A stretch of DNA of 64,000 nucleotides from assembly GCA_965279355.1 (NCBI GenBank), contig OZ257155.1, forward strand, positions 1,961,048-2,025,047, written 5' to 3'. The position numbers and the translations under genes were made by a program. The DNA is from Alphaproteobacteria bacterium. GTDB lineage: Bacteria > Pseudomonadota > Alphaproteobacteria > CACIAM-22H2. Shown here piece by piece: positions 34,349 to 63,980 of the stretch (positions within the stretch are counted from its first letter, which is position 1; each line of letters opens with the position of its first letter). The notes beneath the pieces were generated by a model. That model was not told the DNA's origin, searched no databases, and worked only from the letters and a program-made list of their open reading frames with translations.

Positions 34349-34846
34349 TCAGGCTTCGCAAAGGAAGACGCAGAGGTCAGTCTCCGGTGGCTTTATGCCG
34401 AAATCAAAGAACATCTGGCTTACCCAGCCGCGATGATACGTCTTGTGATTGACGATATGCAGAAACATGCCCCCGCGTGTCATTTCCCCCGCCTTGCCTG
34501 AAACAAAATTGAATTGCAGGCGACGGGCGAGACTCTCCGGATCCTGCGCTTGGGCCCAATCGATATACCACCGATTGATCTCGGACTGCTCCTTCACGAG
34601 TTCCCCAAGATCGGGGTGCAGCACGTCGCGGCGTGTCGAGAACCCGTGCTTCTCGCCCAACAAATGGGCGCGCCAGATCAGATCGACCTGATAGTTGTGA
34701 TTGAGCGTGCCAATCATGGAGCCGAATAACGTCGAACTCGTCTGATACGCTGCGCCGTCCGGCAAGGCCGCCATGGCTTTGAACAAAACCTGATCTGCCC
34801 AGTCGCTGTACCGGGCGAGCATCACGGCGGTCTCTTTAGTCATCAT
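34349..34846 (-). CDS. DinB/YfiT-like (DinB_2) putative metal-dependent hydrolase
   Basis: 165 aa four-helix-bundle DinB family protein with H..H..H spacing. It is the last gene of the minus-strand transporter operon. Confidence 0.55.
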   Translation of the reverse strand: MMTKETAVMLARYSDWADQVLFKAMAALPDGAAYQTSSTLFGSMIGTLNHNYQVDLIWRAHLLGEKHGFSTRRDVLHPDLGELVKEQSEINRWYIDWAQAQDPESLARRLQFNFVSGKAGEMTRGGMFLHIVNHKTYHRGWVSQMFFDFGIKPPETDLCVFLCEA

Positions 34847-34904
34847 GCTATCGCACTGAGGAACGAAGGCGGCGCCCTCGCCGCCTTCCGCTATCGGACC
34901 GGGC

Positions 34905-35855
34905 TTACAGTCCGGTCTTCTCGACTTCCTCGACGAACTTCGTCACTACGAAGTCTTCGGTCGGCATCTTGCGGATCATCTTGTTTTCCATCATCAGCTT
35001 ACCGAAGGCGTCGACACGCTTGAGGAAGGCCGCATCCATCTTCCACTCGGTGTTGATGTTCTTGATGGCAGCCCGGAAGAATTCCGGCTTCAGACCGAAG
35101 GTCGTCACGCCATCCTTTTCCCAGGCATCGTGATTCTTCTTCAGGAATTCCGTCGCGCGCGCATGCGTGCGAACGAAATCCAGCGCCATCTTTGGATCCT
35201 TCTTGATCGACGCCTCGTTCGCCATCATGGCGGTCACGAGATCGCCCGTCGGCGTGCCGTAGGGATATTCGACAAGTTGTCCGGTGCCGTCGAGCAGGCT
35301 CATGCTGGAGCCGGGCTCGGTTCCGACATAGGCGTCGAGATCGCCGCGGGCCAAAGCCGCATACATTTCACCGAGGCCGAGGCGGATCGGCTGAATATCG
35401 GAAAGACTCATTTTCTCCTGCTTCAGGCGCTCGGCAATCACGAGCTCCTGTGTAGAGCCTGGCTGGATACCGACCTTTTTGCCCTTGAGATCGGCCAGCG
35501 ACTTCATGGTGCTGCCACCCTTGGCAATCACCGCCATGGAGCCGCCGGTAAGGTTGGCCACGATGACAACCGGCTCACCGGCCGCGTTACCGAGAATCGC
35601 TGCAAACACACCGCCCAGCGCGAAATCCGCCGAGCCCGTCGCGACGGCGTTCTTTGCGTCCGCCGGTGTGTTCACGTAGACGATGTCGAATTTGTAACCG
35701 GCCGGCGCCAGTTCCTGATAGTGCAGCGCGTGTGCATTGCCGACGAGTTTCAGAACCGCGACCTTGATCGTTTTTTCCTGGGCCACTGTGGGTCCGGCAG
35801 TGAGAGCCAATGCGGCTGCGGCAAGTACGCCCGTAACAGTGCGACGGCTGATCAT
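34905..35855 (-). CDS. ABC transporter substrate-binding protein, NMT1/THI5-like (paralog of 37545..38504)
   Basis: 316 aa with a signal peptide. It is similar to the binding protein at 37545. Confidence 0.75.
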   Translation of the reverse strand: MISRRTVTGVLAAAALALTAGPTVAQEKTIKVAVLKLVGNAHALHYQELAPAGYKFDIVYVNTPADAKNAVATGSADFALGGVFAAILGNAAGEPVVIVANLTGGSMAVIAKGGSTMKSLADLKGKKVGIQPGSTQELVIAERLKQEKMSLSDIQPIRLGLGEMYAALARGDLDAYVGTEPGSSMSLLDGTGQLVEYPYGTPTGDLVTAMMANEASIKKDPKMALDFVRTHARATEFLKKNHDAWEKDGVTTFGLKPEFFRAAIKNINTEWKMDAAFLKRVDAFGKLMMENKMIRKMPTEDFVVTKFVEEVEKTGL

Positions 35856-35873
35856 TCAGAGGATTCCTTCCGG

Positions 35874-36650
35874 TCAGGCCGCCTTGCGGCCGTGGTGGCT
35901 GTGCAGCTTGGAGCCAAGCATGCGGCGGATTTCGTTGAAGTCGGGCGCCGAGACGTCGCGCGGGCGCTGCAAGGTCACCCGGTAATCGTTTTCGATCTTG
36001 CCCGGCGAGGGCGTCATGACCACCACGCGGTCGGAGAGGTAGATCGCCTCTTCGATGGAATGCGTGACGAAGATTACGGTGAGGCCGGTGCGCTGCCAGA
36101 TATCCAGCAGTTCTTCCTGCAGACGCTCACGTGTGAGGGCGTCCAGCGCGCCGAACGGCTCGTCCATCAGCAGCATGTCGGCGTCGTTAGCCAGCACACG
36201 GGCAATCGCCACGCGCTGCTTCATGCCGCCGGAAAGCTGATGCGGATAGGCATCGGCAAATTTGCGCAGTCCCACGATGTCGATGAAACCTTCGACCTTC
36301 TCACGGATCTCGCTCTTGGGACGGCTACGTTCGGTCGGACCGAAAGCGATGTTGTCGCGGACGCTGAGCCAGGGAAACAATACGTAGTCCTGGAACACCA
36401 TGCCGCGGTCGGGACCGGGCTCGGTGACGGCCTTGCCCCAGATCTTCGCAACACCGGATGTTGCCGTCTCGAAGCCGGCCACGATGCGCAGGAGGGTCGA
36501 TTTTCCGCAGCCGGACGCGCCGATCAGGCAGACGAACTCGCCCTTGTTGATGGTCAGGTTGACGTCGCGCAGCGCGTGAATATGCGTGCCGTTGAGCTCA
36601 AATTCCTTCGAGAGGTGTTCGACCTGGAGGATGGGCTGTGTCGTGCTCAT
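35874..36650 (-). CDS. ABC transporter ATP-binding protein
   Basis: Walker A GASGCGKST, signature LSGGMKQR, Walker B LLMDEPF. Confidence 0.85.
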   Translation of the reverse strand: MSTTQPILQVEHLSKEFELNGTHIHALRDVNLTINKGEFVCLIGASGCGKSTLLRIVAGFETATSGVAKIWGKAVTEPGPDRGMVFQDYVLFPWLSVRDNIAFGPTERSRPKSEIREKVEGFIDIVGLRKFADAYPHQLSGGMKQRVAIARVLANDADMLLMDEPFGALDALTRERLQEELLDIWQRTGLTVIFVTHSIEEAIYLSDRVVVMTPSPGKIENDYRVTLQRPRDVSAPDFNEIRRMLGSKLHSHHGRKAA

Positions 36651-36654
36651 GGCG

Positions 36655-37503
36655 TCACCGGCTGTGTTGGGGGCTCCAGCTCAGCATGCGGCTGCTGAAC
36701 TGGGTGATCAGCTTGTCCGAGAGGAACCCGGCGATGCCGATGACGATCATCCCGCAGATGACAAGGTCGGTTCGCGAGAGCGTCCGGGCATCCATGATGA
36801 CGGCGCCGAGGCCCTGCGGCACGCCGGTCATCTCGCCGACGACGATCACCATCCACGCGAAACCATGCCCGAGGCGAAGGCCGGTGAAGATGCTGGGCAG
36901 AGCCGCGGGCAGCACAACGCGACGAAACACGTTGGTGCCCTGGCAACCGAGCATGGCAGCTGCCTCAAATAGCTTGGGATCGACATTGCGGACGCCGAAC
37001 ACGGTATTGAGCAGGATCGGGAAAAACGCGCCGAGAAAGACCAGCGAGAACGCGGATGTCCCGCCAAGGCCAAACAGAATCATGGAGAGCGGCAGCCAGG
37101 CCGTCACCGGGATCGGCCGAAGCATCTGCAGTGTCGGATCGAGGAGTTGACGGGCGAGAAGAACCCGACCGATCAGCAGTCCGAGCGGCACGGCAACCAT
37201 CGTCGCCAGCAGGAAGCCGCCATAAACCCGCGACAGCGACATAATGAGATGGATATGCAAGGTCCGGCTGAAGGCATCGTCCCAGATGCCGCCAACCGCG
37301 AAGTCCCACATCATTATCGCCACTTCGGTTGGTGGCGGGATGAGGCGGCTCTTGGTGTACATCACCGCCAATTGCCAGAACACGACAAAGAGAACCGGGA
37401 CGATCATCGCCAGCAGCGTCGGCCGCAGACGCGTCATCAGGGGAACAGCCGGAGCCGCGGCGGCCGGTGTGGTGGCGGTTCCGGATGTTCCGATCGTTGC
37501 CAT
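36655..37503 (-). CDS. ABC transporter permease
   Basis: 282 aa polytopic membrane protein of the SsuC/TauC-like permease family. Confidence 0.8.
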   Translation of the reverse strand: MATIGTSGTATTPAAAAPAVPLMTRLRPTLLAMIVPVLFVVFWQLAVMYTKSRLIPPPTEVAIMMWDFAVGGIWDDAFSRTLHIHLIMSLSRVYGGFLLATMVAVPLGLLIGRVLLARQLLDPTLQMLRPIPVTAWLPLSMILFGLGGTSAFSLVFLGAFFPILLNTVFGVRNVDPKLFEAAAMLGCQGTNVFRRVVLPAALPSIFTGLRLGHGFAWMVIVVGEMTGVPQGLGAVIMDARTLSRTDLVICGMIVIGIAGFLSDKLITQFSSRMLSWSPQHSR

Positions 37504-37544
37504 TCTCTATTCCTGTGCTCTGAAGCCGATACGGGCGCCTGCCC

Positions 37545-38504
37545 TCAGACGGCGCCCTTCGCCACCTCGTCGTTGAACTTCGGATTGAGGAAGACCGCAA
37601 AGTCCGGCAGTGCGCGAATCTGCTTCAGCTCCAGCATCTGCTGGGCATAGGTCTTGGTACGCGTGATCATCGTCTCGTCCATGCGCCAGGTCAGCTCGAC
37701 ATTGCCAACGGCCTTCTCCAGGGCCGGGCGCTGGGCGCCAAGCTTGGCCATCGCCATGGTGATCTTCTCTTCCCTGCTACCCTGGGCATGTTCGGTTGCC
37801 TGGCGGTGCATCTTCAGGAAGGCGCGGATGAGGTCAGGGTTGTCCTTGGTCATGCGCTCGTGCGTGCAGGTCACCATGTTGAGCGAGCCCATCGCGGTCG
37901 AATATGGATACTCGACCAGCTTGCCTTCGCCGGTGGCGAGGCTCAGGCCCGGTGTCGGCTCGGCGCCGACATAGGCGTCGACGTCACCGCGAACCAGCGC
38001 GGTATGCATTTCGCCGAACGGCACGCGGACTGGCGTGATGTCCTTGACCGACAGACCTTCCATGCGCAGGCGCTCCATGATGAAGACTTCCTGCGTCGAG
38101 CCCGGCCAGATCGCGACTTTATGGCCCTTGAGATCCTTGATCGAAGAGATGGCCACGCTGCTCTTGGCAATCACCCCCATGCCGCCGTTGCAGGCGCCGG
38201 CAATCACGACAACCGGCTCGCCGGCCGCGCCGCCGAGGATCGCCGCCGCGGCGCCGAACATGCCGAAATCGACCGAGCGCGTGACGACCGCGTTCTTGCC
38301 GTCGGTCGGGCTGTCGAAGGTGGTGACTTCGATCTTGTAACCGGGGATCGCGAACTTCTCGTAGAAGTGCGGCGTGATGGAGTGGATGAGGCGAAGACCG
38401 CCGATCTTCAGAACCTTCTCCTGAGCACGGCCGATGGACGGTGCAGCGAGAATTGCGGAGGCGCCGGCGGCACCGGCGAGCAGATGACGGCGTGAAATCT
38501 TCAT
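37545..38504 (-). CDS. ABC transporter substrate-binding protein, NMT1/THI5-like
   Basis: The start is placed at MKISRRHLLAGAAGASAILAAPSIGRA, which reads as a Tat-like signal. It is internal to the longer track ORF. Confidence 0.75.
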   Translation of the reverse strand: MKISRRHLLAGAAGASAILAAPSIGRAQEKVLKIGGLRLIHSITPHFYEKFAIPGYKIEVTTFDSPTDGKNAVVTRSVDFGMFGAAAAILGGAAGEPVVVIAGACNGGMGVIAKSSVAISSIKDLKGHKVAIWPGSTQEVFIMERLRMEGLSVKDITPVRVPFGEMHTALVRGDVDAYVGAEPTPGLSLATGEGKLVEYPYSTAMGSLNMVTCTHERMTKDNPDLIRAFLKMHRQATEHAQGSREEKITMAMAKLGAQRPALEKAVGNVELTWRMDETMITRTKTYAQQMLELKQIRALPDFAVFLNPKFNDEVAKGAV

Positions 38505-38593
38505 GGGGACCTCTCCTGGGGAACTGGGTTGTTTGGAGGAGAGAACAGCAACCGTCGTGCCAAGCCTGCCTTGCCGAAAAATCAACGGAATCC

Positions 38594-38727: not shown

Positions 38728-39435
38728 ATGAGTTTGGATCGCCCATCTGCCTCCATTGCCCGTGTCGATCCCCGGACCCGCGCCGAGGAGATTCGCGCCC
38801 GACTGGCGGATGACATCGCGCATGGCCGGCTGGCGCCCGGCGTACCGCTGGAGGAAACGGAGCTGGCGCAGCGCTTCGGTGTCTCGCGCACTCCCGTGCG
38901 GGAAGCCATCCGTCAGCTGGAAGCGATCGGCCTCGCCGTCGCGCGGCCCCATCGGGGTGCCGTCGTCGCCGCCGTCACGGCGGAACGGCTGGATGAAATG
39001 TTCACGGTGTTGGGCGAGCTGGAAGCCGTCTGCGGACGCGAATGCGCCGCGCGCATGAGCCGCGAGGAGCGCCGGACGTTAGAAAACCTGCATCGCGAGA
39101 TGGGCGACGGGGTCAGTCGCGGCGATCCCGATGCCTATGCGCATCTGAATGACCGTTTCCACGAGACGATCGCCAGCGGCAGCCACAATACATTCCTGAT
39201 CGAGATGACCGCCGCCGTGCGCAGTCGGCTCGTTCCCTTCCGGCAGGCGCAGTTCCATGCGTCACTGCAGCGCCTCTCCCATTCCTGGGCCGAGCATAAC
39301 CAGGTCGTGCAGGCGATCCTGCGGGGCGACGGTACGGGTGCCGCTGAAGCAATGCGTCATCATGTCCGCACCTCCCGCCGCTCCTACGATGTCGTCGCGG
39401 CCCGCCCCGGCAACACCTCGCTCAATGAACGCTAG
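38728..39435 (+). CDS. GntR-family transcriptional regulator (FadR/FCD subfamily)
   Basis: 235 aa with an N-terminal winged HTH (ELAQRFGVSRTPVREAIRQLE) and a C-terminal FCD-like helical domain. Confidence 0.8.
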   Translation: MSLDRPSASIARVDPRTRAEEIRARLADDIAHGRLAPGVPLEETELAQRFGVSRTPVREAIRQLEAIGLAVARPHRGAVVAAVTAERLDEMFTVLGELEAVCGRECAARMSREERRTLENLHREMGDGVSRGDPDAYAHLNDRFHETIASGSHNTFLIEMTAAVRSRLVPFRQAQFHASLQRLSHSWAEHNQVVQAILRGDGTGAAEAMRHHVRTSRRSYDVVAARPGNTSLNER

Positions 39436-39513
39436 GCCGGTGTCCTACCACCTGCTAGCCGATCGGCAATCCGCTTTCGTCATCACCAGCACAACAGCTT
39501 ACGGGCCCACCTT

Positions 39514-41322
39514 ATGATCCGCAGCCTCGATCTCTCCGCCCTTGCCGCCCTCTATGCCGCAAAGTCGGTCACCGCGACCGATGTCGCACGGGAAGTCCTC
39601 GCCCGCGTCAAGGCAGCCGGCGACGATCATGTCTGGATCAGCCGCGTGTCCGACACGGCGCTGTTCGACCGCGCGAATGAACTCAGCCGGCTGGCACCGG
39701 AAGAGCGCGCGAAACTGCCGCTCTTCGGCATTCCGTTCGCGGTGAAGGACAATATCGATGTCGCCGGCCTCCCGACGACCGCCGCCTGCCCCGACTTCGC
39801 TTACAAACCGACACGCAGCGCGACTTGCGTCGAGCGGCTGGAAGCGGCCGGTGCCATGCTGATCGGCAAAACCAATCTCGACCAGTTCGCGACCGGTCTG
39901 GTCGGCGTGCGCTCGCCTTATGGCGTGCCGCGCAATCCCATTGATGCGCGTTACGTACCGGGCGGTTCGAGTTCCGGCTCGGCGGTCGCGGTGTCGTCGG
40001 GTCTTGTCTCGTTTGCGCTCGGGACCGATACGGCGGGATCGGGACGCGTGCCGGCCGGTCTCAACAACATCGTCGGCCTCAAGCCGACGCGCGGGCTGAT
40101 CAGCGCCGCCGGCGTGCTGCCCGCCTGCCGCACCCTGGACTGCGTCTCGGTCTTCGCGCTCACTGCCGACGATGCGCATGCCGTGCTGCAGGCGGCAGGC
40201 GGTCTCGACGAACGCGATTCGTTTTCGCGCGAGGCGAAACCGGGTCCGGTCGCACGGCCGGAAACATTCCGCTTCGCCCTGCCCCGGCCGGATCAGCGCG
40301 CCTTCTTCGGCGACAATGCGGCTAAGGCGGCATTTGAGGCGGATATCGAGCGGCTGATCACCATGGGCGGCACGCCGGTGCTGATCGACTACGCCCCCTT
40401 CCTCGCGACCGCCAAGCTGCTCTACGAAGGCCCGTGGGTGGCCGAGCGCTACACGGTTGTACGCCAGCTCATCGAGAGCAAACCGGAGGCGCTGCACCCG
40501 GTGACGCTGCAGATCATCTCGGGCGGCGCCAGCTATCAGGCCGCCGACGCCTTCGAAAGTTTCTACCGGCTGGAAGAGCTGCGGGCGGAGACGCGGCGCA
40601 TCCTGGCCGGCATCGATATCATGGTCGTGCCGACATCGGGCACCGTCTACACTGTCGCCGAACTCGAAGCGGATCCGATCCGGCTCAACAGCAACCTCGG
40701 CTACTACACGAACTTCGTGAACTTCCTCGACTACAGCGCACTCGCGGTGCCGAGCGGGTTCCGGCCCAATGGCGGCATGCCGCACGGCATCACGCTGATC
40801 GCGCCGGCCTGGTCGGAAGGATTGCTGACCGCATTCGGCGCGGAGTTTCACCAGCAGATCGGCGGCAAGATGGGCGCCACGGGCATCGACCTGCCGCCGC
40901 GGAGCAAGGCCGCCATTGCGGCGCCGGCCAACACCATCGATGTCGTCATCGTCGGGGCGCATCTCACGGGACAGCCGCTCAATCCGCAGCTCACCGATAT
41001 CGGCGCCAGCTTCCGCCGCGTCTGCCGCACCGCGGCGAGCTACAGGCTGTATGCCTTGCCGGGAATGCCGGCGCGTCCGGGCCTTATCAGGGTTCCCGGC
41101 GGCGGCTGCGCCATAGAGGCGGAAATCTGGGCGGTCCCGGCCGACAAACTCGGCGGATTCCTCACCGGCATCGCGGCACCGCTGGGCCTCGGCAAGGTGA
41201 TGCTGGAGGATGGATCGACGGCGACCGGCTTCATCTGCGAGCCGATCGGCATTGCCGATGCGACGGAAATCACGTCCTTCGGTGGCTGGCGGGCCTACCG
41301 CGCGCGCAGCTCGGCGGCCTGA
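39514..41322 (+). CDS. atzF: Allophanate hydrolase (amidase-signature N-domain plus an AtzF/DUR1,2-type C-terminal domain)
   Basis: 602 aa. The AS-family motif GGSSSGSAVAV and the catalytic K/S/S context are present. The length matches two-domain allophanate hydrolases. Confidence 0.75.
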   Translation: MIRSLDLSALAALYAAKSVTATDVAREVLARVKAAGDDHVWISRVSDTALFDRANELSRLAPEERAKLPLFGIPFAVKDNIDVAGLPTTAACPDFAYKPTRSATCVERLEAAGAMLIGKTNLDQFATGLVGVRSPYGVPRNPIDARYVPGGSSSGSAVAVSSGLVSFALGTDTAGSGRVPAGLNNIVGLKPTRGLISAAGVLPACRTLDCVSVFALTADDAHAVLQAAGGLDERDSFSREAKPGPVARPETFRFALPRPDQRAFFGDNAAKAAFEADIERLITMGGTPVLIDYAPFLATAKLLYEGPWVAERYTVVRQLIESKPEALHPVTLQIISGGASYQAADAFESFYRLEELRAETRRILAGIDIMVVPTSGTVYTVAELEADPIRLNSNLGYYTNFVNFLDYSALAVPSGFRPNGGMPHGITLIAPAWSEGLLTAFGAEFHQQIGGKMGATGIDLPPRSKAAIAAPANTIDVVIVGAHLTGQPLNPQLTDIGASFRRVCRTAASYRLYALPGMPARPGLIRVPGGGCAIEAEIWAVPADKLGGFLTGIAAPLGLGKVMLEDGSTATGFICEPIGIADATEITSFGGWRAYRARSSAA

Positions 41323-41452: not shown

Positions 41453-42493
41453 TCATGCAGCGGCCTCCGGCAGTTCGGCCTGCGGCAGCGGCGCCAGATC
41501 GCCCTGCTTCACCAGCAGTTCGCGCAGCATGCGCCGCATGATCACGCCGGGGCGATCGGACGCCATGCTCTTCTCGCTCTCCGAGAAATCCTCAAGCGGC
41601 ACGTCGGCTTCGGTGGTTTCAAGGATGATCTTGTCCTCAAGCGTCACCTCGCGATCGAAGGCGATGATATCCGCCGCCGGTGCCTGTTCCTCGGTGTCGT
41701 TGCGATAGCAGAACTGCACCACCATGGACTTGTGATCGTCGATCGGCGTCGCGCAGGTGATGATCGAATGGCGAAGGCCGTTCGGATAGGTGATGCCCAG
41801 CTTGCGAGAAAACGGCATCCACCAAACGTTTTTGCGTGTGCGCGTCGTGATGCCGTTATCCATCTGCAGATTCTTTTTCTGGATATCGGTGTTCTTCACA
41901 TTCGACACGGCGGTGTAGTTGAAGCCGCCGTCGAACGGCATGATCTCGGGCTGCACATGCGTCGGGTCCGACTGGATGCCGAAGGTCTTGCGGTGCACGA
42001 AGGCGGGGTGCGCGATGTCGAAGGAGTTTTCCATCAGGCGCAGGCCCGAACACTCCCACATCTCGTAAAACTGGTCGATCCTGCGGAAGCCGGGCTCGCC
42101 GGCCTCGGTGATGTCGGGGATGCCATAGAGCGGCTCGTCGAGGGCTACCCAGACATAGCCGTAACGTTCCTCGGCCCGGTACGCTGGAATCCGCATGTTC
42201 TTTGGTTGGCGCTCAACGTCCATCTGCGGAATGCGGACGCACAGTCCCGTGCGATCGAAGGTCCAGCCGTGATAGCCGCAGACCACGTTGCCGTTCTCGC
42301 AGAAGCCTTTGCTTAGCCTGGCCGTGCGATGGCAGCAGCGGTCAAGGGTCGCCGCCGGCTTACCGGCCGCGTCGAGCCAAAGGACGATATCGGTTTCCAG
42401 CAGCCGGAACGGCTTCGGCCCGTCCTTCAGGTCCTCGACCTTGATGACGGGGTACCAAAAGCGACGGAAAACCGGATGTTTGGTGACCAGCAT
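41453..42493 (-). CDS. Rieske [2Fe-2S] non-heme-iron oxygenase alpha subunit (VanA/phthalate-family monooxygenase-like)
   Basis: 346 aa with the Rieske motif CCHR-X16-CGYHGW and a C-terminal mononuclear-iron catalytic domain. Confidence 0.8.
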   Translation of the reverse strand: MLVTKHPVFRRFWYPVIKVEDLKDGPKPFRLLETDIVLWLDAAGKPAATLDRCCHRTARLSKGFCENGNVVCGYHGWTFDRTGLCVRIPQMDVERQPKNMRIPAYRAEERYGYVWVALDEPLYGIPDITEAGEPGFRRIDQFYEMWECSGLRLMENSFDIAHPAFVHRKTFGIQSDPTHVQPEIMPFDGGFNYTAVSNVKNTDIQKKNLQMDNGITTRTRKNVWWMPFSRKLGITYPNGLRHSIITCATPIDDHKSMVVQFCYRNDTEEQAPAADIIAFDREVTLEDKIILETTEADVPLEDFSESEKSMASDRPGVIMRRMLRELLVKQGDLAPLPQAELPEAAA

Positions 42494-42628
42494 GCAGAAC
42501 TCCGCTTCCCATGGCGGTGGAACTTCTGCGTCTGCAGTCGCAATCGCTATGCCAACCGGACCGCAACGCGCGGATCAGTTATCCGGCGCATCAAGCCCTT
42601 GGACGAGCATCAAGATTCGAGGCCACGA

Positions 42629-42643
42629 TTGCCGTCAAGGCAA
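42629..42643. promoter_or_regulatory. LysR-type T-N11-A palindrome
   Basis: ttgccgtcaaggcaa is a perfect dyad. It lies about 135 bp upstream of the Rieske oxygenase start and just downstream of the lysR stop. Confidence 0.3.
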
Positions 42644-42658
42644 TGCCAGTGGCGACGC

Positions 42659-52840: not shown

Positions 52841-52841
52841 G

Positions 52842-54188: not shown

Positions 54189-54190
54189 CC

Positions 54191-56943: not shown

Positions 56944-57514
56944 CGGTCCACGCCCGGTCGAGAAACCGGCGGCGTCGCTCCATCGTCCCCCGATTCATAT
57001 CGTAGAACGCGACATAATTGGCGCGGCAGCCGAAACCGCACAGCGCCTTGAAGTAGCGCGTGATGTGGCCGCGCGGCAGGTCGCCGACGATCAGCCGCAC
57101 ATGCCACCATGGCCGCCCATAGGTCGCGACGCCGACGATCCGTTTGATGTTGGTCAGTGCCGGCCGCGCGATGCCGTCCTCGCCCAGGGTGAATGACACG
57201 CCCGGCACCAGCACCCGGTCGAACCAGCCCTTGAGGATGGCCGGCACGCCGAAACTCCAGGTCGGAAACACGAACACCACGGCGTCGGCCCGCTGCAGCC
57301 GTACGGCGTAACTGTCGACCAGTGCCCGGTTGCGCGTCAGGTCGTGATAATCCTGCCGCTCCGCCGCGCTCAACACCGGATCGAATTTCTCGGCATAGAG
57401 ATCGCAATCGTCGACCTCATGCCCGGCGGCGCGCAGCGCATTGAGGACCGTCCGGTGGACTTCGGCGTTGAAACTGTCGCCCAGCGGGTGGGCGTAGAGG
57501 ACGAGGACTTTCAT
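56927..57514 (-). CDS. Flavodoxin-like fold NAD(P)H-dependent oxidoreductase (NQO/MdaB-like)
   Basis: 195 aa. It begins MKVLVLYAHP, typical of FMN-dependent NAD(P)H quinone/azo reductases. Confidence 0.6.
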   Translation of the reverse strand: MKVLVLYAHPLGDSFNAEVHRTVLNALRAAGHEVDDCDLYAEKFDPVLSAAERQDYHDLTRNRALVDSYAVRLQRADAVVFVFPTWSFGVPAILKGWFDRVLVPGVSFTLGEDGIARPALTNIKRIVGVATYGRPWWHVRLIVGDLPRGHITRYFKALCGFGCRANYVAFYDMNRGTMERRRRFLDRAWTAMTQL

Positions 57515-57542
57515 ATCCTCGGCAGTGCAAGAGGAGTGCCGC

Positions 57543-59204
57543 TTATGGTCCCGCGACGACCGGCAGCATCACTCGCGATGGCGTCTGACCGCCGTGCCGC
57601 AACGTCACCGTGATGATGCGCTGATCGATCAGCCGCGCCGTGGCCGGCGGGGCGCCGTCGCCGGTGTTCACGGGATGCGCCGGGAAACTGCCGGGCGAGA
57701 CCGACAGGCGCAGCGCCGAGCCGGCCTTGATGCAGGCGCAGGTCGCGCGCATTGAAATCGTCACCGGCGACGTCGGTTTGTCCAGTCTCGCATAGCCTTC
57801 GGTGAGGTTGATCACGCGGCCGTCGGGCTTCACTTCGGACAGGATCGCGCAGACATCGAAGCTCGGCTGGTCCGCTTCGACAAACAGGATGGCGGCGACG
57901 TTGCCTGCCAGATGCAGATCGGTTTTCTGCACCGGCATGGTGAAGGTGGCGACATCAGGGCGCATGTCGGCGGAGGCGCGGTTGGCGGGGCCGAGCGGAT
58001 AGGCCTTGTGGCCGCCGACAGTTGGCGTCGGGCGCCAGGGATCGAAGACGAGGACATCCTCGCCGGCTGGACCGGCGCTCTCCGTGAGAACACCATCCCT
58101 GGGATCGAGACCGGCGCGGCCGCAGCTGCGCAGATGCATGTCCTTCGCCGCCGCTGCCGGCCAGGAGTCGAACTCACTCCATGAGCCGCCCATTTCGAAC
58201 AGGCGCACCGGCTTCTGCTTCATCACGCCGGTGTCGATCCCTTTCAGCCAATGATCGAACCACTGGATCTGTAGATGATCGATCATGTTGATCGCGGTGT
58301 CGCCGAACTCCACCTCACCGACCTTGGTCGCCCACGGGATATGCACCCAAGGACCGACGACTAGTTTCTGGTTGGCGACCTTGCGGCGGACCATGTCCTG
58401 ATAGCAGCCCAGGGTGCCGCTCAGCATGCCGTCGTACCAGCCGCCGATATGCAGCATCGGCACGTCGATTTTATCGGCATGGAAGCGGGGCGATATCTTC
58501 TCCCAGAACGGACCCGGTTCGGGATGCGAGACCCAGGCCGGATAGTGACCGAACTGGCCGTAGCGCTGCATCACATCCGGCATCGCCGGGATGGCGTCAT
58601 TCAACGGCATGGCGCGCGCGGCCGAAACCAGCGCGCGGTGCGCGTCGACATTACCGGCACGGCGCGTGGCTTCGGCGGAGAGCTGCGCGCCCCAGCCCAG
58701 GCCGGCATAGAACCGGAACGCATCGCCCTCGAAGGCGATATCGCTGTAGACATCCCAGGCGGACATCGCGGGGCACAGCGCCTTGAGCGCCGGATGCTTC
58801 GTCGCGGCAGCAAAGAGCTGCGTCATGCCCTGATAGGAAAAGCCGTACATGCCGATGACGCCGCTCGACCCCGGCAGCTTTGCCGCCCAGTCCAGCGTAT
58901 CGGCGCCGTCAGCGACTTCGGATTCGAAGATGCGGAATTCGCCTTCCGAGGTGCCGCGCCCGCGCACGTCCTGAATGACGACGATATAGCCGTGCTGCGC
59001 GTACCAGCTGGGATGGGCATAGACGACGGTGGACGCGATTGAGCGCCCATACGGCTGGCGCATCAGCAGGACCGGAAACGGACCCGCGGCATCGGGCCTG
59101 TAGATATCGGCCTCGAGCCGCACGCCGTCGCGCGTCTTCATCGACACCGTTTCGCGCGGCTTCAGCTTATAGCGCGCCGCCGCCGGCTTGCGGTCATCCG
59201 GCAT
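57543..59204 (-). CDS. CocE/NonD-family alpha/beta hydrolase (S15 X-Pro dipeptidyl-peptidase-like)
   Basis: 553 aa with nucleophile elbow GFSYQG and the C-terminal beta-sandwich domain typical of CocE/NonD proteins. Confidence 0.7.
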   Translation of the reverse strand: MPDDRKPAAARYKLKPRETVSMKTRDGVRLEADIYRPDAAGPFPVLLMRQPYGRSIASTVVYAHPSWYAQHGYIVVIQDVRGRGTSEGEFRIFESEVADGADTLDWAAKLPGSSGVIGMYGFSYQGMTQLFAAATKHPALKALCPAMSAWDVYSDIAFEGDAFRFYAGLGWGAQLSAEATRRAGNVDAHRALVSAARAMPLNDAIPAMPDVMQRYGQFGHYPAWVSHPEPGPFWEKISPRFHADKIDVPMLHIGGWYDGMLSGTLGCYQDMVRRKVANQKLVVGPWVHIPWATKVGEVEFGDTAINMIDHLQIQWFDHWLKGIDTGVMKQKPVRLFEMGGSWSEFDSWPAAAAKDMHLRSCGRAGLDPRDGVLTESAGPAGEDVLVFDPWRPTPTVGGHKAYPLGPANRASADMRPDVATFTMPVQKTDLHLAGNVAAILFVEADQPSFDVCAILSEVKPDGRVINLTEGYARLDKPTSPVTISMRATCACIKAGSALRLSVSPGSFPAHPVNTGDGAPPATARLIDQRIITVTLRHGGQTPSRVMLPVVAGP

Positions 59205-59631
59205 GGCGCGCGCCTGCGATCACCGCTTTGTCTTCCGCATCCAGCGTGACCGGAATGCCATTGCGGATCAGCTGCGCGAAATCCTCATTAGGCACCATAA
59301 CGGTCAGGCAGTAGAGCTTGCCGGCACCGGTGTTCTCGACCACATGCGTGCCGCCCGGGCGGACCATCAGCGCGTCACCGGCCTTCACGACCTTCTCGGC
59401 GCCGTCGCAATACGCGATCCCCTCGCCTGCCAGGACGAAGAACATCTCATGGGCGCGCTGGTGGACGTTGGGCGGAGTCTTGCCACCCTTCTCGAAAATC
59501 TCGATCACGCAGGTGAGATCGACATTGTCGCCCTCGGGATCGAAGATCATCGCGAAGTAGTTCGAATCGCCCGCCGCGATGCGATAGGCGCGGCATTCCG
59601 TCATGGTCTTCGCAATCAGATGGGATGTCAT
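59194..59631 (-). CDS. Cupin domain protein
   Basis: About 145 aa small-barrel cupin (..HQRAHEMFFVLAGEG.. ...GGTHVVEN). Its ATG overlaps the stop of the upstream isochorismatase-like gene (ATGA). Confidence 0.6.
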   Translation of the reverse strand: MTSHLIAKTMTECRAYRIAAGDSNYFAMIFDPEGDNVDLTCVIEIFEKGGKTPPNVHQRAHEMFFVLAGEGIAYCDGAEKVVKAGDALMVRPGGTHVVENTGAGKLYCLTVMVPNEDFAQLIRNGIPVTLDAEDKAVIAGARHAG

Positions 59632-60401
59632 TTCTTGAATCCCTTGCGGATGGCCGCACCCGACGCGACGAAACCGAAGCACTGCTTCACGTTATAGACC
59701 GTCGCGTCCCAGCAGAATTGCGGCGATGTGGTCGCCGAGCAGTCGGAAACCATGATGCAGTCGTAGCCCAGGAAATTCGCGTCCTGGAGCGTGCACAACA
59801 CGCATTGGTCGGCATTCACGCCGCCGAACAACAGCGTGGTGATGCCGAGATTGCGCAGCACTGAGTCGAGTTCGGTGTCCCAGAAGCCGCTCATCCGGTA
59901 CTTGTCGATGTGGATGTCGTCCTTGTGCGGTTTTAGGCCATCGACGATGGCTGCCGCCCAGCTTCCCTTCTGCAGCACCGGCGCCTTGCTCTTTGGCAAC
60001 GGATCGCCAAGACCGACGCCCTTGCCGGTCGGCTTGTAGACATGCAGCAGCGACGGGCTGAGGTTGAGCTTGTCGGGACGGTTGCCCCAGTTCACCCAGA
60101 TCACGGGAACATCGGCGCCGCGCAGTACCGGTAGCAGCGCGTTCAGCGGTTTGATCGGCTGGCGCGCGGGTGTCACATCGACACCAATGTGCGCGAGCCA
60201 GCCCTTGGGCGAACAGAAATCGTTCTGCATATCGATGACGATCATCGCGGTGCGCGCGGCATCGATGACCAGCTTCTGCGGCTCGGCATCGATGGATATG
60301 GGACGGATTTTGCGCCCCTGCCGCGTCATGTCGACCTTGGTCTCGGACACCTGCCAGGCGGTCACCGGCGCCGATCCCAGGGACACTAAACCTCTAGCCA
60401 A
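59628..60401 (-). CDS. Isochorismatase-like cysteine hydrolase (family of RutB, biuret hydrolase and N-carbamoylsarcosine amidase)
   Basis: 257 aa with the catalytic D-K-C arrangement context (IVIDMQNDF ... GGVNADQCVLCT). Confidence 0.7.
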   Translation of the reverse strand: MARGLVSLGSAPVTAWQVSETKVDMTRQGRKIRPISIDAEPQKLVIDAARTAMIVIDMQNDFCSPKGWLAHIGVDVTPARQPIKPLNALLPVLRGADVPVIWVNWGNRPDKLNLSPSLLHVYKPTGKGVGLGDPLPKSKAPVLQKGSWAAAIVDGLKPHKDDIHIDKYRMSGFWDTELDSVLRNLGITTLLFGGVNADQCVLCTLQDANFLGYDCIMVSDCSATTSPQFCWDATVYNVKQCFGFVASGAAIRKGFKK

Positions 60402-60502
60402 ATCAGCCTCCTAGCCGTCCCTGCCCGAAAATTAGGCAGACATCATCTCGCCCGGGTGAACTTGCAAGAGGGGTGCCGGACGCCTCACCCGCGTCTCTTC
60501 CG

Positions 60503-60633
60503 TCACCCCGCACTTGATGCGGGGCCCATCGTGCCGAGGGTGCGGTCGCTCCCATGAGCGCGCCGACGTCGGCACATCCATACCGATGTCATCGAAAGCG
60601 GAGACATGGGCCCCGCATCAAGTGCGGGGTGAC
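60503..60633. repeat. Perfect 28-bp inverted repeat flanking a ~75-bp spacer; each arm is itself a 7-bp-stem hairpin. MITE/REP-like element or complex terminator
   Basis: Arm1 gtcaccccgcacttgatgcggggcccat (60503-60530) is the exact reverse complement of arm2 atgggccccgcatcaagtgcggggtgac (60606-60633). Confidence 0.6.
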
Positions 60634-60665
60634 AGAAATGGAGAGAGACAGAGCCTCGACCGCCC

Positions 60666-61043
60666 CTACCCCATCAGACTCACATGCGCCGACACGACCC
60701 GCCAGCCGTCCGGGGTGCGCATCCAGGTCTGGGACTGGCGGCCGATCTTGGGCGTGCTGTCGCGGCGGAATTCGGTGTTGGCGGTCGCCATGTCGCGGCC
60801 GTAAGTCGTGATCACCGTGTTCTGGATGGTGCGCGCGAGGCCGGCCGAGGGACGCCCAGCGCGGAAGGCCTGGATCTGTTCGTAGCCGTAGAGATTTTCA
60901 CCGGCGCCGTAGCGGATGGTGAGCGGGCTTTTCCAGAACAGCTCGTCCAGAACATCGACTTCGTTGTTGACCAGCGCTTTTTCGTAGCGCGCAAACGCCG
61001 CCTGCATTTCGGCGACGACATCGGGCAGATTGATCTCAAGCAT
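60666..61043 (-). CDS. AtzH-like NTF2/SnoaL-fold small protein (DUF3225-type)
   Basis: 125 aa immediately downstream of the AtzE-like amidase. The gene order G-E-H matches the Pseudomonas sp. ADP atzGEH arrangement. Confidence 0.5.
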
Positions 61044-61056
61044 TCCTGTTGTTCCC

Positions 61057-62448
61057 TTACAGCGCAGCCACAGGTGCGGCGGCGACTCCCAGACGTTCCA
61101 GCTCGGCGGCGACGCGCAGCACCGTCGCCTCTTCCCACGGACGGCCGATAACCTGAATGCCCATCGGCATGCCGGGTCCCGCGATCGGCACCGCCGCCAC
61201 CGGCAGGCCGATGAAGGAGATCGGCTGGGTGTAGAGGCCGAGATTGCTGCGGACCACCACCTCCTTGCCGGCGGCGATCATCATTTTCTGTTCGAGCTCG
61301 GGGGCCGTGACCGGCGTGGACGGTGCCAGCACCACATCCACGGTCTTGAACAGTTCCGCCACCTGATGGCGATACCAGTGACGGAAGCGCTGCGCGCGAT
61401 TGACCCAGGCGGCGGGAATCAGCGCGCCCGCCAGCAGGCGGTCGCGCGTCTCGAAATCGAAGTCCTTGGCACGAACGCGGATGCGGTCCAGATGCAGCGC
61501 CGCCCCTTCCGATGCCGTGATGACGAACGCGGCGGCACGCGCGCGCGCGGCTTCGGGAAACTCGACGGTGCGTGTAACACCCAGCGCCTTCGCGGCCTTG
61601 GCGACAGCGGCCGTCGCGTCGGCGCCGAGATTGTCGGCGAAATAACCGCCGGCCACGGCGATGCGTAGCCCGCCAACACCTTCACCGATTGATGGGAGCG
61701 CCAGTTCGACCGGACGATTGGCGCAGGCCGTGTCTTCGGGATCGGGGCCCTGCATCGAGTCATAGGACAGCGCGAGATCGCGCGCGGTGCGGGCCAGCGG
61801 TCCCAGATGGTCGAGACTGGCGACGAACGGAAAGCTGCGGCGCCGGGACAGGCGGCCGAAGCTCGGCTTCAGGCCGAAAATGCCGCACAGCGACGACGGC
61901 ACGCGGATCGAGCCGTTGGTATCGGAGCCGAGCGCCAGCGGCACAAGGCTGGCGCCGACCGCCGTGCCGGAGCCGCCCGACGAACCGCCGGACATGCGGC
62001 CCAGATCGTGCGGATTGCGCGAGTGATCGTAATGTTCGTTGCGTCCCGTGAAGTCATAGGCGTATTCGCCCATGTTGAGCGCGCCGACCAGAATGGCGCC
62101 TGCCGCCTCAAGCCGCTCGATCAGCACCGCGTCGTGCTTGGCGGGCGCAAGCTCGCGGTTGATCTTCGATCCCGCAAGCGTGGTGACACCTGAAATGTCG
62201 AACAGGTTCTTGACCGCGAACGGAACGCCGGCCAGCGGGCCGGGTTTCTCGCCGCGCGCGATCCGCTCGTCCATCTCCTTCGCGCGTTTACGGGCCCGGT
62301 CGCCCGTGACTTCGGTAAAGGCGTTCAGCTTGGGATTGAGAGCGGCGATGCGGGTCAGTGTCGCGTCGATCACCGCCGTCGCGGTGAGCGTGCGGCCCTG
62401 CATGTCGGCGGCGATTTCGGCAACGCTTTTCACGGAAAGGTCGCTCAT
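61057..62448 (-). CDS. AtzE-like amidase-signature hydrolase (1-carboxybiuret hydrolase family)
   Basis: 463 aa with AS-family core [11 protein letters not shown] and upstream K. It overlaps the GatC-like small-subunit gene by 4 bp. No gatB is nearby. Confidence 0.65.
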
Positions 62449-62630
62449 CGCGGGGTGAACACCGCGGCCGGTTCCTCGCTCTCGTCGAGCGGGAAGTCGC
62501 TCACGAATTTCGCCATCGCGATGATGAGCGCGAAATTCTCCTGCACCACCGGCATGTATTCCGGCGCGATGGGGAGCGCCATGGTTTTCGCCAGGGTCTC
62601 GATTTGGGCCTTGAGATCGGTGTCTGTCAT
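62445..62630 (-). CDS. AtzG-like small subunit (GatC-like, about 60 aa)
   Basis: 61 aa acidic helical protein translationally coupled to the AtzE-like gene. Confidence 0.5.
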   Translation of the reverse strand: MTDTDLKAQIETLAKTMALPIAPEYMPVVQENFALIIAMAKFVSDFPLDESEEPAAVFTPR

Positions 62631-62639
62631 GGATGCAGC

Positions 62640-63980
62640 CTAGAGTGCGATTTGAAGATCGTCGAGTTCCCGGTAATCGGGCAATTTGCGGTCGATGGGA
62701 CGGCCATTGCGCAGCACGACACGGTCGGACTGCGGCCGGGCCAGCAGCTCGCTCATGGAGCGCGCGTGGAAGAGGATGAGATCGGCGTTCATGCCGGGCT
62801 TGATGCGACCCAGTTCGGGAAGGCGCATGACATCGGCCGGGGTGCGCGTCACCACGCGCGGCCAGTCGGTGTGCGGATAGTCGAGATGGGCGATGCGGAC
62901 TGCCTGGTTATAGGTGTCGTGCATGTCGAGATCGCCGAACTCGTGGAAGGAGTCGCGCGTGTTGTCGCTGCCGACGGTCACAGTCACACCGCGCGCACGC
63001 AGCTCATGCAGCAGCGTCACGCCCCGCCAGCGCGGTGTGACCCCCGCATTGCGCGCCTGCACATACATGTTGCAGGTCGGCATGCTGGCCACCGCGAGGC
63101 CTGAATCGGCGCAGGCATCCAGCGTGTCTTTCACCAGCTGATCGGGCTGGATGGACAGGCTGCAGCAATGGCCGGTGACGATCTTTCCCTTGAAGCCGCG
63201 TTTGATCGCGGTGCGGGCGATGAAGCCCAGCGCCACGGCGCGGGGATCGCCGCCCTCGTCGACATGGAAATCGAGATCGAGATTCCGTTCCTCGGCCAGC
63301 TTGAAGAAATTATCCAGCATCGCCTGCAGGTCGGCAGGCATGCCGTTCTCATGGTCGCTATGGACCAGGCGCGTGACGCAGCCGAGATTGCCGCCGGCGT
63401 CGGCGACCATGTCGGCCAGCTTCGGGCCGAACGGCGACATGAAGGTGTCGATGGAAACGAGGCTGGTCGCCTGCAACGCGATCTTCCCGGCCCATTCGTC
63501 GCGCAGGTCGCGGAAGACCTTGTACGAAATGGCGGCCTGCGATTCGTAGACATCGAGATGCGTGCGCAGCGCGGCCGTGCCATGCACATAGGCGCAGCGC
63601 AGCGCAAAATCGGCTCTCCGCTTGACGTCGTCATAGGACCAGCGGCGCGTGCGGTCATCGACGATGGTCTTGACCGCGGTCGGGAACGAGCCGTCGACGC
63701 TGGGGGCCCGCGGCCAGATATGGCCCTTGTCGAGATGGGTGTGGATGTCGACGTAACACGGCCAGATCTGGTCGTTGTCGAGATCGATCCCGCCATCGGA
63801 GCCCAGCGTGCCGGCCGGGGCGACGGACGTCACCCGGCCGCCGGCAATATCCATATCGATGTCGATCAGGCCGCTGGAGTCGACCGGGCCCGGCGGCGGC
63901 ATGTCGAGAAGGGCCGCCAGGACCCGCGCCCGGCGCAGGCGCAGATCACCGGTGTCAGGCAGTTTGAGGTAGTCGGACAT
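62640..63980 (-). CDS. Cytosine deaminase-like amidohydrolase (CodA/AtzC family), paralog of 52842..54188
   Basis: 446 aa collinear with the other copy (VDIHTHLDKGHIWPRA, ERNLDLDFHVDE, RWRGVTLLHEL). Confidence 0.7.
   Translation of the reverse strand: MSDYLKLPDTGDLRLRRARVLAALLDMPPPGPVDSSGLIDIDMDIAGGRVTSVAPAGTLGSDGGIDLDNDQIWPCYVDIHTHLDKGHIWPRAPSVDGSFPTAVKTIVDDRTRRWSYDDVKRRADFALRCAYVHGTAALRTHLDVYESQAAISYKVFRDLRDEWAGKIALQATSLVSIDTFMSPFGPKLADMVADAGGNLGCVTRLVHSDHENGMPADLQAMLDNFFKLAEERNLDLDFHVDEGGDPRAVALGFIARTAIKRGFKGKIVTGHCCSLSIQPDQLVKDTLDACADSGLAVASMPTCNMYVQARNAGVTPRWRGVTLLHELRARGVTVTVGSDNTRDSFHEFGDLDMHDTYNQAVRIAHLDYPHTDWPRVVTRTPADVMRLPELGRIKPGMNADLILFHARSMSELLARPQSDRVVLRNGRPIDRKLPDYRELDDLQIAL

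Follow-up and report, generated by a model that had tools for sequence, protein, structure and literature searches.

A candidate supercluster for nitrogen-heterocycle catabolism around a widespread core gene cluster in an alphaproteobacterium

Described systems and the locus compared with them

The atzDGEHF cluster of Pseudomonas sp. ADP (PMC6219798) is among the nearest described systems to the locus reported here, a block of ~30 genes at positions 34349-63980 of a 64,000-nucleotide stretch from an alphaproteobacterial genome (contig OZ257155.1, 1,961,048 to 2,025,047; this whole stretch is called the window). The block has homologs of AtzG, AtzE, AtzH and AtzF, its AtzG-AtzE-AtzH genes (contiguous at 60666-62630) have the same order and the same pattern of overlap and abutment, and the route that we propose for it would also end with the turnover of allophanate to ammonia and CO2. 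Unlike the ADP cluster, it has no AtzD, its AtzF-type allophanate hydrolase gene lies outside the AtzGEH operon, 19 kb from AtzH on the plus strand and behind a GntR-type regulator gene, and an AtzC-like amidohydrolase gene heads the AtzGEH operon. Beta-proteobacterial atzG-atzE-atzH clusters with genes for allophanate hydrolase, ABC transporters and amidases have been proposed to serve the catabolism of an unidentified nitrogenous compound (Esquirol et al., PMC6219798). These resemble the block in combining AtzGEH, allophanate hydrolase and ABC importers with no AtzD, but here and in three other loci (L061, L013 and L030) the triad is joined to a partner cluster of creatininase-family, PRK07583-type and 6V42-type genes that does not appear in that report.

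The Rut pathway (RutA-G), which releases carbamate- or urea-type nitrogen, resembles the block in other respects: RutB is the best structural match of the block's isochorismatase-fold hydrolase, both systems include a flavin or NAD(P)H reductase and an alpha/beta hydrolase, and RidA, which is RutC-like, is common in the partner cluster elsewhere. However, the block has no RutA-type luciferase-like monooxygenase, its hydrolase fails the RutB cutoff, an ABC importer stands in place of RutG, and deaminase, VAO-type flavoenzyme and creatininase-family genes are added. The triuret/biuret pathway of TrtA, TrtB, BiuH and AtzF (PMC12625717) and the BiuH of Rhizobium leguminosarum (PMC5806882) likewise pair an isochorismatase-fold ureide hydrolase with allophanate hydrolase, but the block's enzyme fails the BiuH equivalog, no TrtB was identified, and the block encodes many extra oxidative enzymes. 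In archaeal metagenome-assembled genomes, biuH is collocated with creatininase-like and GatA-like genes, for which no function was given (PMC12625717). The demethylases NdmA and NdmB share a Rieske plus VanA_C-type architecture with both Rieske enzymes of the block and are among their closest solved relatives, but the similarity is distant and no NdmD-type reductase is encoded. The oxalurate module of Enterobacteriaceae (HpxX-Y-Z plus the oxamate amidohydrolase HpxW, with genes of the allantoate pathway beside them; PMC6219798) has counterparts here in the HpxZ-like protein and the HpxY/AtzE-family amidase, but no gamma-glutamyltransferase-family HpxW was found in the window, and a PRK07583 amidohydrolase heads the operon.

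None of these systems fits the whole enzyme set, and our literature search gave no characterised pathway that does, in agreement with an initial annotation that a model had made from the letters alone. Nor do the genes divide cleanly among separate characterised pathways. The parts are known enzyme superfamilies in a catabolic gene cluster; their combination and substrate are undescribed. At the centre of the block is a core that recurs as a set in many genomes: a creatininase-family hydrolase, an ABC importer with an NMT1-type binding protein, an amidohydrolase of the PRK07583 clade, a flavoenzyme of the type of PDB entry 6V42 and a flavodoxin-fold reductase. We put it at slightly better than an even chance that the region is a lineage-specific supercluster around this widespread, uncharacterised catabolic cluster, and that it takes a nitrogen-rich ring compound through urea or allophanate to ammonia.

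Genes were called from a listing of open reading frames (ORFs) with GC3 and frame statistics, and families were assigned with Pfam and NCBIfam (Table 1). Every gene family that the initial annotation had named was recovered in its place, and two genes were added to its list, the Flavodoxin_2 reductase and a DinB-family gene at the left edge. The latter is probably outside the pathway, since no other locus links it to the core. The picture of a co-oriented island did not survive: the genes fall into ~9 transcription units, as judged from orientation and gaps, with four strand switches (minus 34349-38585, plus 38728-41322, minus 41453-46849, plus 47005-56943 and minus 56927-63980). The G+C content (0.59-0.66) is that of the remaining window, and integrase and transposase genes are absent, so we describe the block as a gene cluster rather than a compositional island. 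Paralogous pairs are a feature of the block, with identities of 58% for the Rieske proteins, 36% for the 2-oxoglutarate/Fe(II) (2OG) oxygenases, 56% for the tandem FAD enzymes and 59% for the amidohydrolases.

A core cluster conserved across genomes

The full core set lies at 47005-57514 in the window, and the same set occurs in loci L164, L169, L170 and L171 and in many others. To describe its neighbourhood, window proteins were mapped onto 83 loci anchored by the creatininase-family gene and 80 metagenome loci anchored by the amidohydrolase; the shares given here are those of the 56 creatininase-anchored loci that are 18 kb or longer (long loci). Flanks were 10 kb, which leaves part of the left importer module outside and makes its absence only partly informative. 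The pattern of conservation is nested. Core genes are the most frequent (ATPase_b 75%, permease_b 71%, NMT1 binding protein 68%, FAD oxidase 59%, amidohydrolase 46% and Flavodoxin_2 reductase 38%, the last often in two copies), followed by a second shell of cupin (21%), isochorismatase (20%) and CocE (12%) genes and a third of Rieske (9%) and 2OG oxygenase (7%) genes. AtzE/H are rare (4%), and GntR, DinB, SBP_a/b-type binding proteins and AtzF were found in none of these loci. Within the shells the genes keep company: a cupin gene is present in 11 of the 11 long loci with an isochorismatase gene, and isochorismatase in 69% of the 16 with a cupin gene. All long loci with a Rieske, 2OG or isochorismatase gene have the creatininase-family gene, as do eight of the nine with CocE.

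The core is not confined to close relatives. Its operon was found in Hoeflea, R. leguminosarum, R. tumorigenes, Paroceanicella, Mesorhizobium, Roseibium and Skermanella, and the creatininase-family protein has at least 598 relatives in species-representative genomes; in the search with this protein, 7954 of the 8000 candidates scored reach E <= 1e-20. The flavoenzyme has 6972 close homologs in metagenome sequences. Carriers that lend themselves to genetics include Mesorhizobium loti, Hoeflea, Gluconobacter cerinus NBRC 3267 and Pigmentiphaga litoralis. In the metagenome scan, every amidohydrolase relative found is nearer to AH_1 than to AH_2, and no AH_2 ortholog is among them. Diverse genomes from soil, freshwater and marine habitats carry the cluster in abundance, a sign that its substrate may be natural and common. 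The arrangement varies. In Hoeflea, RidA and the creatininase-family gene are divergent from genes for the binding protein, ATPase, permease, amidohydrolase, FAD oxidase and two reductases, while Paroceanicella has a single operon that includes a 2OG oxygenase gene adjoining the creatininase-family gene. The frequency of RidA in the core elsewhere suggests an enamine or imine intermediate, as in the Rut pathway. The literature searched gave no description of the core cluster or of its enzyme combination, and no substrate assignment.

The closest relatives of the window (L002 and L165-L167) have 77-84% amino-acid identity to it. L002 and L165 retain the Rieske, 2OG, binding-protein, creatininase-family, importer, amidohydrolase, cupin and isochorismatase genes and one FAD oxidase gene, and L166 and L167 hold a more compact version with no FAD oxidase or binding protein. 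Another locus, L001, keeps the core through isochorismatase, where the locus ends. In L002, L166 and L167 the cluster is followed by a further Rieske gene and an amidase gene and then by the housekeeping genes ispG and hisS, with hemA and prfA also present in L166 and L167; the L165 locus stops at the amidase. The synteny check that had been suggested for the 30-kb block as a conserved unit thus came out as scattered, with a central part that is kept and flanked by housekeeping genes.

The modules at the periphery of the block were found beside the core in other places. In L061, AtzE, AtzH and AtzF genes are packed against permease, ATPase, binding-protein, FAD oxidase, reductase, creatininase-family and amidohydrolase genes within 12 kb. 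AtzG-E-H lies 1.3 kb from the creatininase-family gene in L013; in L030, the creatininase-family, cupin, isochorismatase and AtzH genes are consecutive, with AtzH directly after isochorismatase; and in L019 AtzH adjoins the importer. Homologs of the left transporter stand by the creatininase-family gene in L017 (ATPase_a 63%, permease_a 59% and SBP_b 55% identical), and in R. leguminosarum bv. trifolii CB782 (RLEG12_09990-10045) urea carboxylase and allophanate hydrolase genes abut the core. Every module re-joins the core independently, in varied gene order and in unrelated lineages, and on this comparative evidence we take the peripheral modules to be functionally coupled to it. The two independent links between core and allophanate hydrolase, in L061 and CB782, strengthen the reading that the route ends in urea or allophanate.

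Bacterial species with the core number in the hundreds and metagenome sequences with it in the thousands, and identification of its substrate would re-annotate many genes now called creatininase, cytosine deaminase or FAD-linked oxidase, labels that are probably misnomers on such genes. A route by which organic nitrogen is turned over in soil, rhizosphere and water, so far overlooked, might come to light as well. The link of the core to AtzG-E-H and allophanate hydrolase offers a testable context for the natural role of AtzEGH, which its discoverers left open. The window is the richest version among the loci compared, with all shells and both terminal modules, and can serve as a guide to candidate substrates. 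The 30-kb assembly itself is idiosyncratic, which we count against the weight of the finding.

Accessory genes that are absent from the window lie near the core in some relatives (L164, 12625-14648; L165, 2891-5299; L166, 17602-19977). In Hoeflea they encode a fumarylacetoacetate-hydrolase-family protein and a metallo-beta-lactamase, and in the closest relatives a second amidohydrolase of ~415 residues with a 370-residue protein (faint LVIVD match) and a 388-residue amidase. Two Roseibium loci (L021 and L025, at about position 10000) have a creatininase-clade homolog (52-53% identical) with no importer, amidohydrolase or FAD gene beside it, near homologs of PuuD, PuuE and OHCU/HIU enzymes, and some members of the clade may therefore act in purine catabolism.

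Enzyme families and a possible route

The superfamilies in the block are as first annotated, but the literal identities of creatininase, CodA cytosine deaminase and BiuH or RutB fail family tests. The creatininase-family protein scores 92.3 bits against the creatininase equivalog TIGR04448 (cutoff 235) and 104 bits against that of MftE (cutoff 172). Aligned to 3A6H, it retains equivalents of Glu34, His36, Asp45, His120 and His178, five of the six active-site residues, and has Gly at the metal-ligand position of Glu122 ('SHGGQ' instead of 'GHYEN'). In the P. putida creatininase we take Glu34, His36, Asp45, His120 and Glu122 to form the binuclear metal site and His178 to be catalytic. Judged from its sequence, the protein is a metal hydrolase of this family and not a creatininase. 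Its longest ORF opens at a GTG at 48004, abutting the SBP_d stop; we place the start at 48034 because the 99%-identical database protein has 280 residues.

In an alignment of AH_1, AH_2 and three orthologs with E. coli CodA, His61, His63, His214, Glu217, His246 and Asp313 are invariant, the cytosine-binding Gln156 is replaced (Pro/Met/Ile-type), and Asp314 is replaced by Asn. The score with the E. coli-type CodA subfamily model PRK09230 falls short (113 bits, cutoff 483). Both proteins pass the PRK07583 model, which is labelled 'cytosine deaminase' (scores in Table 1) and for whose clade no experimentally tested member was found. Their PDB matches to CodA/5-methylcytosine deaminase and to AtzC are about equal in strength; for AH_1 they are CodA at 1e-25 and AtzC at 6e-23. 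With these residues in place, AH_1 and AH_2 look like competent hydrolytic deaminases.

The isochorismatase-fold protein falls below the models for RutB (TIGR03614, 144 bits against 378) and BiuH (NF050097, 125 bits against 370). Its PDB matches include RutB (2e-32), BiuH (7e-28) and structures related to N-carbamoylsarcosine amidase, and its nearest characterised relatives, RutB, BiuH and one further cysteine hydrolase, are all ureide cleavers. Among the remaining hydrolytic genes, the allophanate hydrolase passes its equivalog TIGR02713 clearly (783 bits, cutoff 511), and the CocE/NonD hydrolase matches cocaine esterase at 3e-64. The AtzH-like protein matches AtzH (6BJT, 4e-47) and, slightly closer, the uncharacterised structure 2RCD (5e-52); it also passes the HpxZ equivalog NF033625, 'oxalurate catabolism' (216 bits, cutoff 135), an assignment that we met in the open literature solely as a proposal. 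The earlier statement that no cyanuric acid hydrolase is present holds for the called genes: Pfam matched no AtzD/TrzD/barbiturase-type family in the block or in other called window genes, and the window stops 20 bases upstream of AH_2, with the sequence beyond unseen.

The nearest solved relatives of the Rieske proteins are the methylxanthine N-demethylases NdmA and NdmB and the saxitoxin hydroxylases SxtT and SxtDIOX (E ~1e-28), and NCBIfam gave both proteins only distant, sub-threshold matches. Orthologs of Rieske1 and Rieske2 are distinct and stand in tandem in L088, L090 and L101; Rieske2 also has orthologs at 72% in L001 and L002. The closest structures to 2OG_2 are the reconstructed ancestor 9OVH, PaIPNS (6JYV), which has no known function, and thymine-7-hydroxylase (1e-46). 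FAD_1 shares 46% identity with PDB 6V42, and FAD_2 shares 54% with 6V42 and 6V43, 'FAD/FMN-containing dehydrogenase' (E = 4e-151); their distinct orthologs are likewise arranged in tandem at many loci. Because 6V42 is ~75% identical to the orthologs in Mesorhizobium clusters and 90% identical to a Hoeflea protein, it is a solved ortholog of the cluster flavoenzyme. A literature search found no publication for 6V42/6V43, and the entry name is generic. A trigonelline or homarine pathway, with TgnB as a presumed Rieske enzyme, was considered and rejected.

From family membership and conservation of catalytic residues, which are observed, a route can be proposed in which every step is inferred. 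NMT1-type binding proteins would hand a small, nitrogen-rich, urea-containing heterocycle and its congeners to the two ABC importers. The Rieske enzymes (Ndm-like) and 2OG/Fe enzymes (thymine-7-hydroxylase-like) might then remove or oxidise N- or C-alkyl groups. Most oxygenases share an operon with a binding protein of their own (Rieske2 and 2OG_1 with SBP_c, and 2OG_2 with SBP_d; Rieske1 is by itself), which points to a funnel of congeners into one core substrate. AH_1 and AH_2 could deaminate an exocyclic amino group, the 6V42-type flavoenzymes could oxidise the ring or a side chain, and the flavodoxin-fold NAD(P)H reductase would handle a quinonoid or otherwise oxidised intermediate. The creatininase-family metallohydrolase would open the ring at a cyclic amide or take off a formyl or acyl group, and the linear ureide that results would be split by the RutB/BiuH-like hydrolase together with the cupin and CocE-family proteins. 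Finally, AtzG-E-H and allophanate hydrolase would convert a carboxy-ureide or allophanate to ammonia and CO2; carriers that release urea may use urea carboxylase and allophanate hydrolase instead. The initial annotation had read the enzyme set as uptake, oxidation, deamination and hydrolysis of a urea or ureide compound ending in allophanate, and the L061 and CB782 links agree with that. A pyrimidine-type substrate seems to us somewhat more likely than one of the triazine, hydantoin or imidazolone type. A more specific form of the proposal, which we consider improbable, makes the core a widespread and unrecognised pathway for a natural urea-containing heterocycle, for example an oxidative pyrimidine route via a barbiturate- or alloxan-like intermediate; the creatininase-family enzyme would open the ring as AtzD or barbiturase does elsewhere, and the cluster would be the natural, pre-herbicide home of AtzG-E-H.

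The most serious alternative, though an unlikely one, is that the block is a chance mosaic of independent pathways: one module, for urea/allophanate (or of guanidine type), would consist of the left importer, GntR and allophanate hydrolase; another, for oxalurate or purine end products, would consist of AH_2 with AtzG-E-H and serve the upstream purine genes; and the centre would be an unrelated catabolic cluster. Several observations weigh against a supercluster or for a mosaic. Related genomes do not keep the 30-kb block as a unit, its strands are mixed, and two different regulators accompany at least nine transcription units, whose promoter regions have no convincing operator motif in common. 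Only ~5 of the 83 anchored loci have AtzE/H linked to the core, and AtzF is so linked in one, plus CB782. AtzF, AtzGEH and the left module are all absent in the closest relatives (L002 and L165-L167), so the block is lineage-specific. An inverted repeat stands exactly at the isochorismatase/AtzH junction, the NCBIfam label of the AtzH-like protein points to oxalurate, and genes for xanthine dehydrogenase, urate oxidase, HIUase-OHCU decarboxylase and allantoinase make up a full set at 9-29 kb. Further points count against a single catabolic route: no ferredoxin-reductase-type partner for the Rieske enzymes is encoded in 34-64 kb or in L165-L167, RidA is absent in the window, no Rfam or riboswitch match was obtained at gathering thresholds or at E <= 1, and the roles given to the redox enzymes are guesswork, as breakdown of a substrate by hydrolysis alone, for instance of an s-triazine, would call for no such enzymes. 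What speaks for coupling and against a mosaic is that each peripheral module adjoins the core in unrelated lineages and in differing order (L061, L013, L030, L019, L017 and CB782), and that AtzE/H co-occur with it in five of the 83 loci, where a rough estimate (20-kb neighbourhood, 5-Mb genome) expects ~0.3. Purine genes are near the core in just 2-3 of 167 loci; their adjacency is thus not a conserved link, and a purine-end-product role for the core was rejected. An unrelated ATP-grasp/transglutaminase cluster at 30326-34295 also separates the purine genes from the block.

Two known kinds of pathway might instead account for the cluster, each with far less probability than the mosaic. One is s-triazine degradation, of ammeline-, ammelide- or cyanuric-acid-like compounds or of a natural triazine such as 5-azacytosine, with ring deamination by AH_1/AH_2, a creatininase-family enzyme in place of cyanuric acid hydrolase, and AtzGEH and AtzF at the end. 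This very doubtful route would make use of AtzG, AtzE, AtzH and AtzF homologs that all exceed family thresholds, fits the lack of an AtzD-type gene among the block genes, and suits amidohydrolases that match AtzC nearly as well as CodA and have Asn at CodA Asp314. AtzC presumably has Asn at that position too. Yet the most conserved partners of the amidohydrolase are the FAD oxidase and the NAD(P)H reductase, and triazine hydrolysis needs no redox chemistry; AtzEGH is rare beside the core; the abundance of the cluster in diverse habitats argues for a natural, common substrate; and the right edge of the window leaves room for an AtzD-type gene beyond it. Degradation of creatinine or an N-methylhydantoin-type imidazolone seems, if anything, slightly less probable still. 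It would run through Rieske N-demethylation and CodA-like deamination (creatinine deaminase activity), after which the creatininase-family enzyme would open the ring and the isochorismatase-fold enzyme would cleave an N-carbamoyl amino acid (compare N-carbamoylsarcosine amidase). All three folds of the two known creatinine routes are present, and the N-carbamoylsarcosine-amidase-related structures among the isochorismatase matches agree with it, but the creatininase equivalog failed, Glu122 is replaced, no creatinase, N-methylhydantoinase or sarcosine oxidase is present, and AtzEGH, AtzF, the FAD oxidases and the cupin are left unexplained.

Transport, regulation and surroundings

The block encodes five NMT1-type binding proteins and two ATPase-permease pairs, and the whole window has seven such binding proteins. 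Those of the block are 52% (c/e), 42% (a/b), 40% (c/d) and 38% (d/e) identical. SBP_a reaches 113 bits with the NCBIfam SsuA_fam model, under the cutoff of 163.5, and SBP_c orthologs (65-69%) adjoin a Rieske gene in L001 and L002. The GntR gene is divergent from the left transporter and directly 5' of the allophanate hydrolase gene; its product probably controls both, and passes no NCBIfam equivalog cutoff. Its promoter region has two GTATGCA repeats 12 bp apart, a motif that occurs at chance frequency in the window as a whole. The LysR-type regulator probably controls the core: R. leguminosarum and R. tumorigenes have a LysR gene between their creatininase-family gene and transporter operon, and homologs (36-42%) are present in L015, L038, L041 and L055.

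Promoter and terminator scans gave matches at chance level, with one well-placed site, the hairpin 3' of 2OG_2, which from its position probably separates two plus-strand operons. The inverted repeat occupies part of the 264 bp that separate the isochorismatase gene from AtzH, at the junction of the conserved cluster and the AtzGEH module, and is compatible with a module boundary. Its arms are 97% complementary with 76 nt between them, each contains the palindrome CCCCGCA-CTTGA-TGCGGGG, and no further copy exists in the window; chance alone would give 0.07. It may be a MITE- or REP-like element or a large regulatory hairpin.

Table 1. Features of the block and of the purine gene region to its left (window positions)
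Feature	Position	Strand	Match or remark
DinB-family protein	34349-34846	-	Pfam DinB 72 bits; left edge of block
SBP_a, NMT1/SsuA-like binding protein, left transporter module	34905-35855	-	Pfam NMT1 79 bits
ABC ATPase_a	35874-36650	-	Pfam ABC_tran
ABC permease_a	36655-37503	-	Pfam BPD_transp_1
SBP_b, NMT1/SsuA-like binding protein	37545-38585	-	Pfam NMT1 84 bits
GntR/FCD regulator	38728-39435	+	Pfam GntR+FCD
Allophanate hydrolase, AtzF-type	39514-41322	+	Pfam Amidase+AH_C; TIGR02713
Rieske1, non-haem iron oxygenase, VanA_C-type catalytic domain	41453-42493	-	Pfam Rieske+VanA_C
LysR-type regulator	42659-43609	-	Pfam HTH_1+LysR_substrate
SBP_c, NMT1 binding protein	43692-44717	-	Pfam NMT1 99 bits; operon with Rieske2 and 2OG_1
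Rieske2 oxygenase	44744-45802	-	Pfam Rieske/VanA_C
2OG_1, 2OG/Fe(II) oxygenase, DIOX_N type	45851-46849	-	Pfam DIOX_N+2OG-FeII_Oxy
SBP_d, NMT1 binding protein	47005-48003	+	Pfam NMT1 98 bits; heads SBP_d/creatininase-family/2OG_2 operon
Creatininase-family metallohydrolase	48034-48876	+	Pfam Creatininase 241 bits; anchor of conserved core
2OG_2, 2OG/Fe(II) oxygenase	48902-49888	+	Pfam DIOX_N/2OG-FeII
Terminator-like hairpin 3' of 2OG_2	49917-49934	+	Pattern match only; such matches at chance frequency overall
SBP_e, NMT1 binding protein, core importer	50146-51138	+	Pfam NMT1
ABC ATPase_b, core importer	51135-51962	+	Pfam ABC_tran
ABC permease_b, core importer	51959-52840	+	Pfam BPD_transp_1
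AH_1 amidohydrolase, PRK07583 clade, CodA/AtzC-like	52842-54188	+	NF005759 635 bits
FAD_1, VAO/PCMH-type flavoenzyme	54191-55567	+	Pfam FAD_binding_4
FAD_2, VAO/PCMH-type flavoenzyme	55564-56943	+	FAD_binding_4; 54% to PDB 6V42/6V43
Flavodoxin-fold NAD(P)H oxidoreductase, quinone-reductase-like	56927-57514	-	Pfam Flavodoxin_2 121 bits
CocE/NonD-family alpha/beta hydrolase	57543-59204	-	TIGR00976 452 bits
Single-domain cupin	59194-59682	-	Pfam Cupin_2
Isochorismatase-fold cysteine hydrolase, RutB/BiuH/TrtA-like	59628-60401	-	Pfam 130 bits
32-nt inverted repeat, isochorismatase/AtzH gap	60498-60637		Arms 60498-60529 and 60606-60637
AtzH/HpxZ-like NTF2-fold protein	60666-61043	-	Pfam AtzH-like PF11533 207 bits
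AtzE-family amidase	61057-62448	-	NF006631 equivalog 700 bits (cutoff 461)
AtzG-like small subunit, 61 aa	62445-62630	-	Pfam AtzG-like PF13318 58 bits
AH_2 amidohydrolase	62640-63980	-	NF005759 593 bits; heads AH_2-AtzG-AtzE-AtzH operon
M20 amidohydrolase	9087-10367		
PuuD-type membrane urate oxidase	10495-11694		Weak sub-threshold cytochrome c-like match at C-terminus
PuuE-type allantoinase	11699-12640		
OHCU decarboxylase-HIU hydrolase fusion	12640-13527		
NMT1 binding protein, ATPase and permease	13540-16293		
Amidohydrolase	17490-18998		
Luciferase-like monooxygenase and NMT1 binding protein	20837-23035		
FAD monooxygenase	23068-24231		
Glyoxalase-family protein	24259-25113		
XdhB/XdhA xanthine dehydrogenase	25242-29108		

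To the left of the block, 9087-29108 is a near-complete purine-to-allantoin region. It is followed by a gene for an RRM-domain protein (29741-30178) and by the ATP-grasp/transglutaminase cluster, a conserved set of four genes for a circularly permuted ATP-grasp protein, an Alpha-E protein, a transglutaminase-like protein and a protein like a proteasome-type subunit. Two Crp/Fnr-type regulator genes (7558-9083) precede the purine region, and the first part of the window (1-7088) holds Flp/Tad pilus genes (T2SSF, a CpaF-type ATPase, a ParA/BcsQ-like ATPase, CpaD, the secretin CpaC, RcpC/CpaB and a prepilin peptidase).

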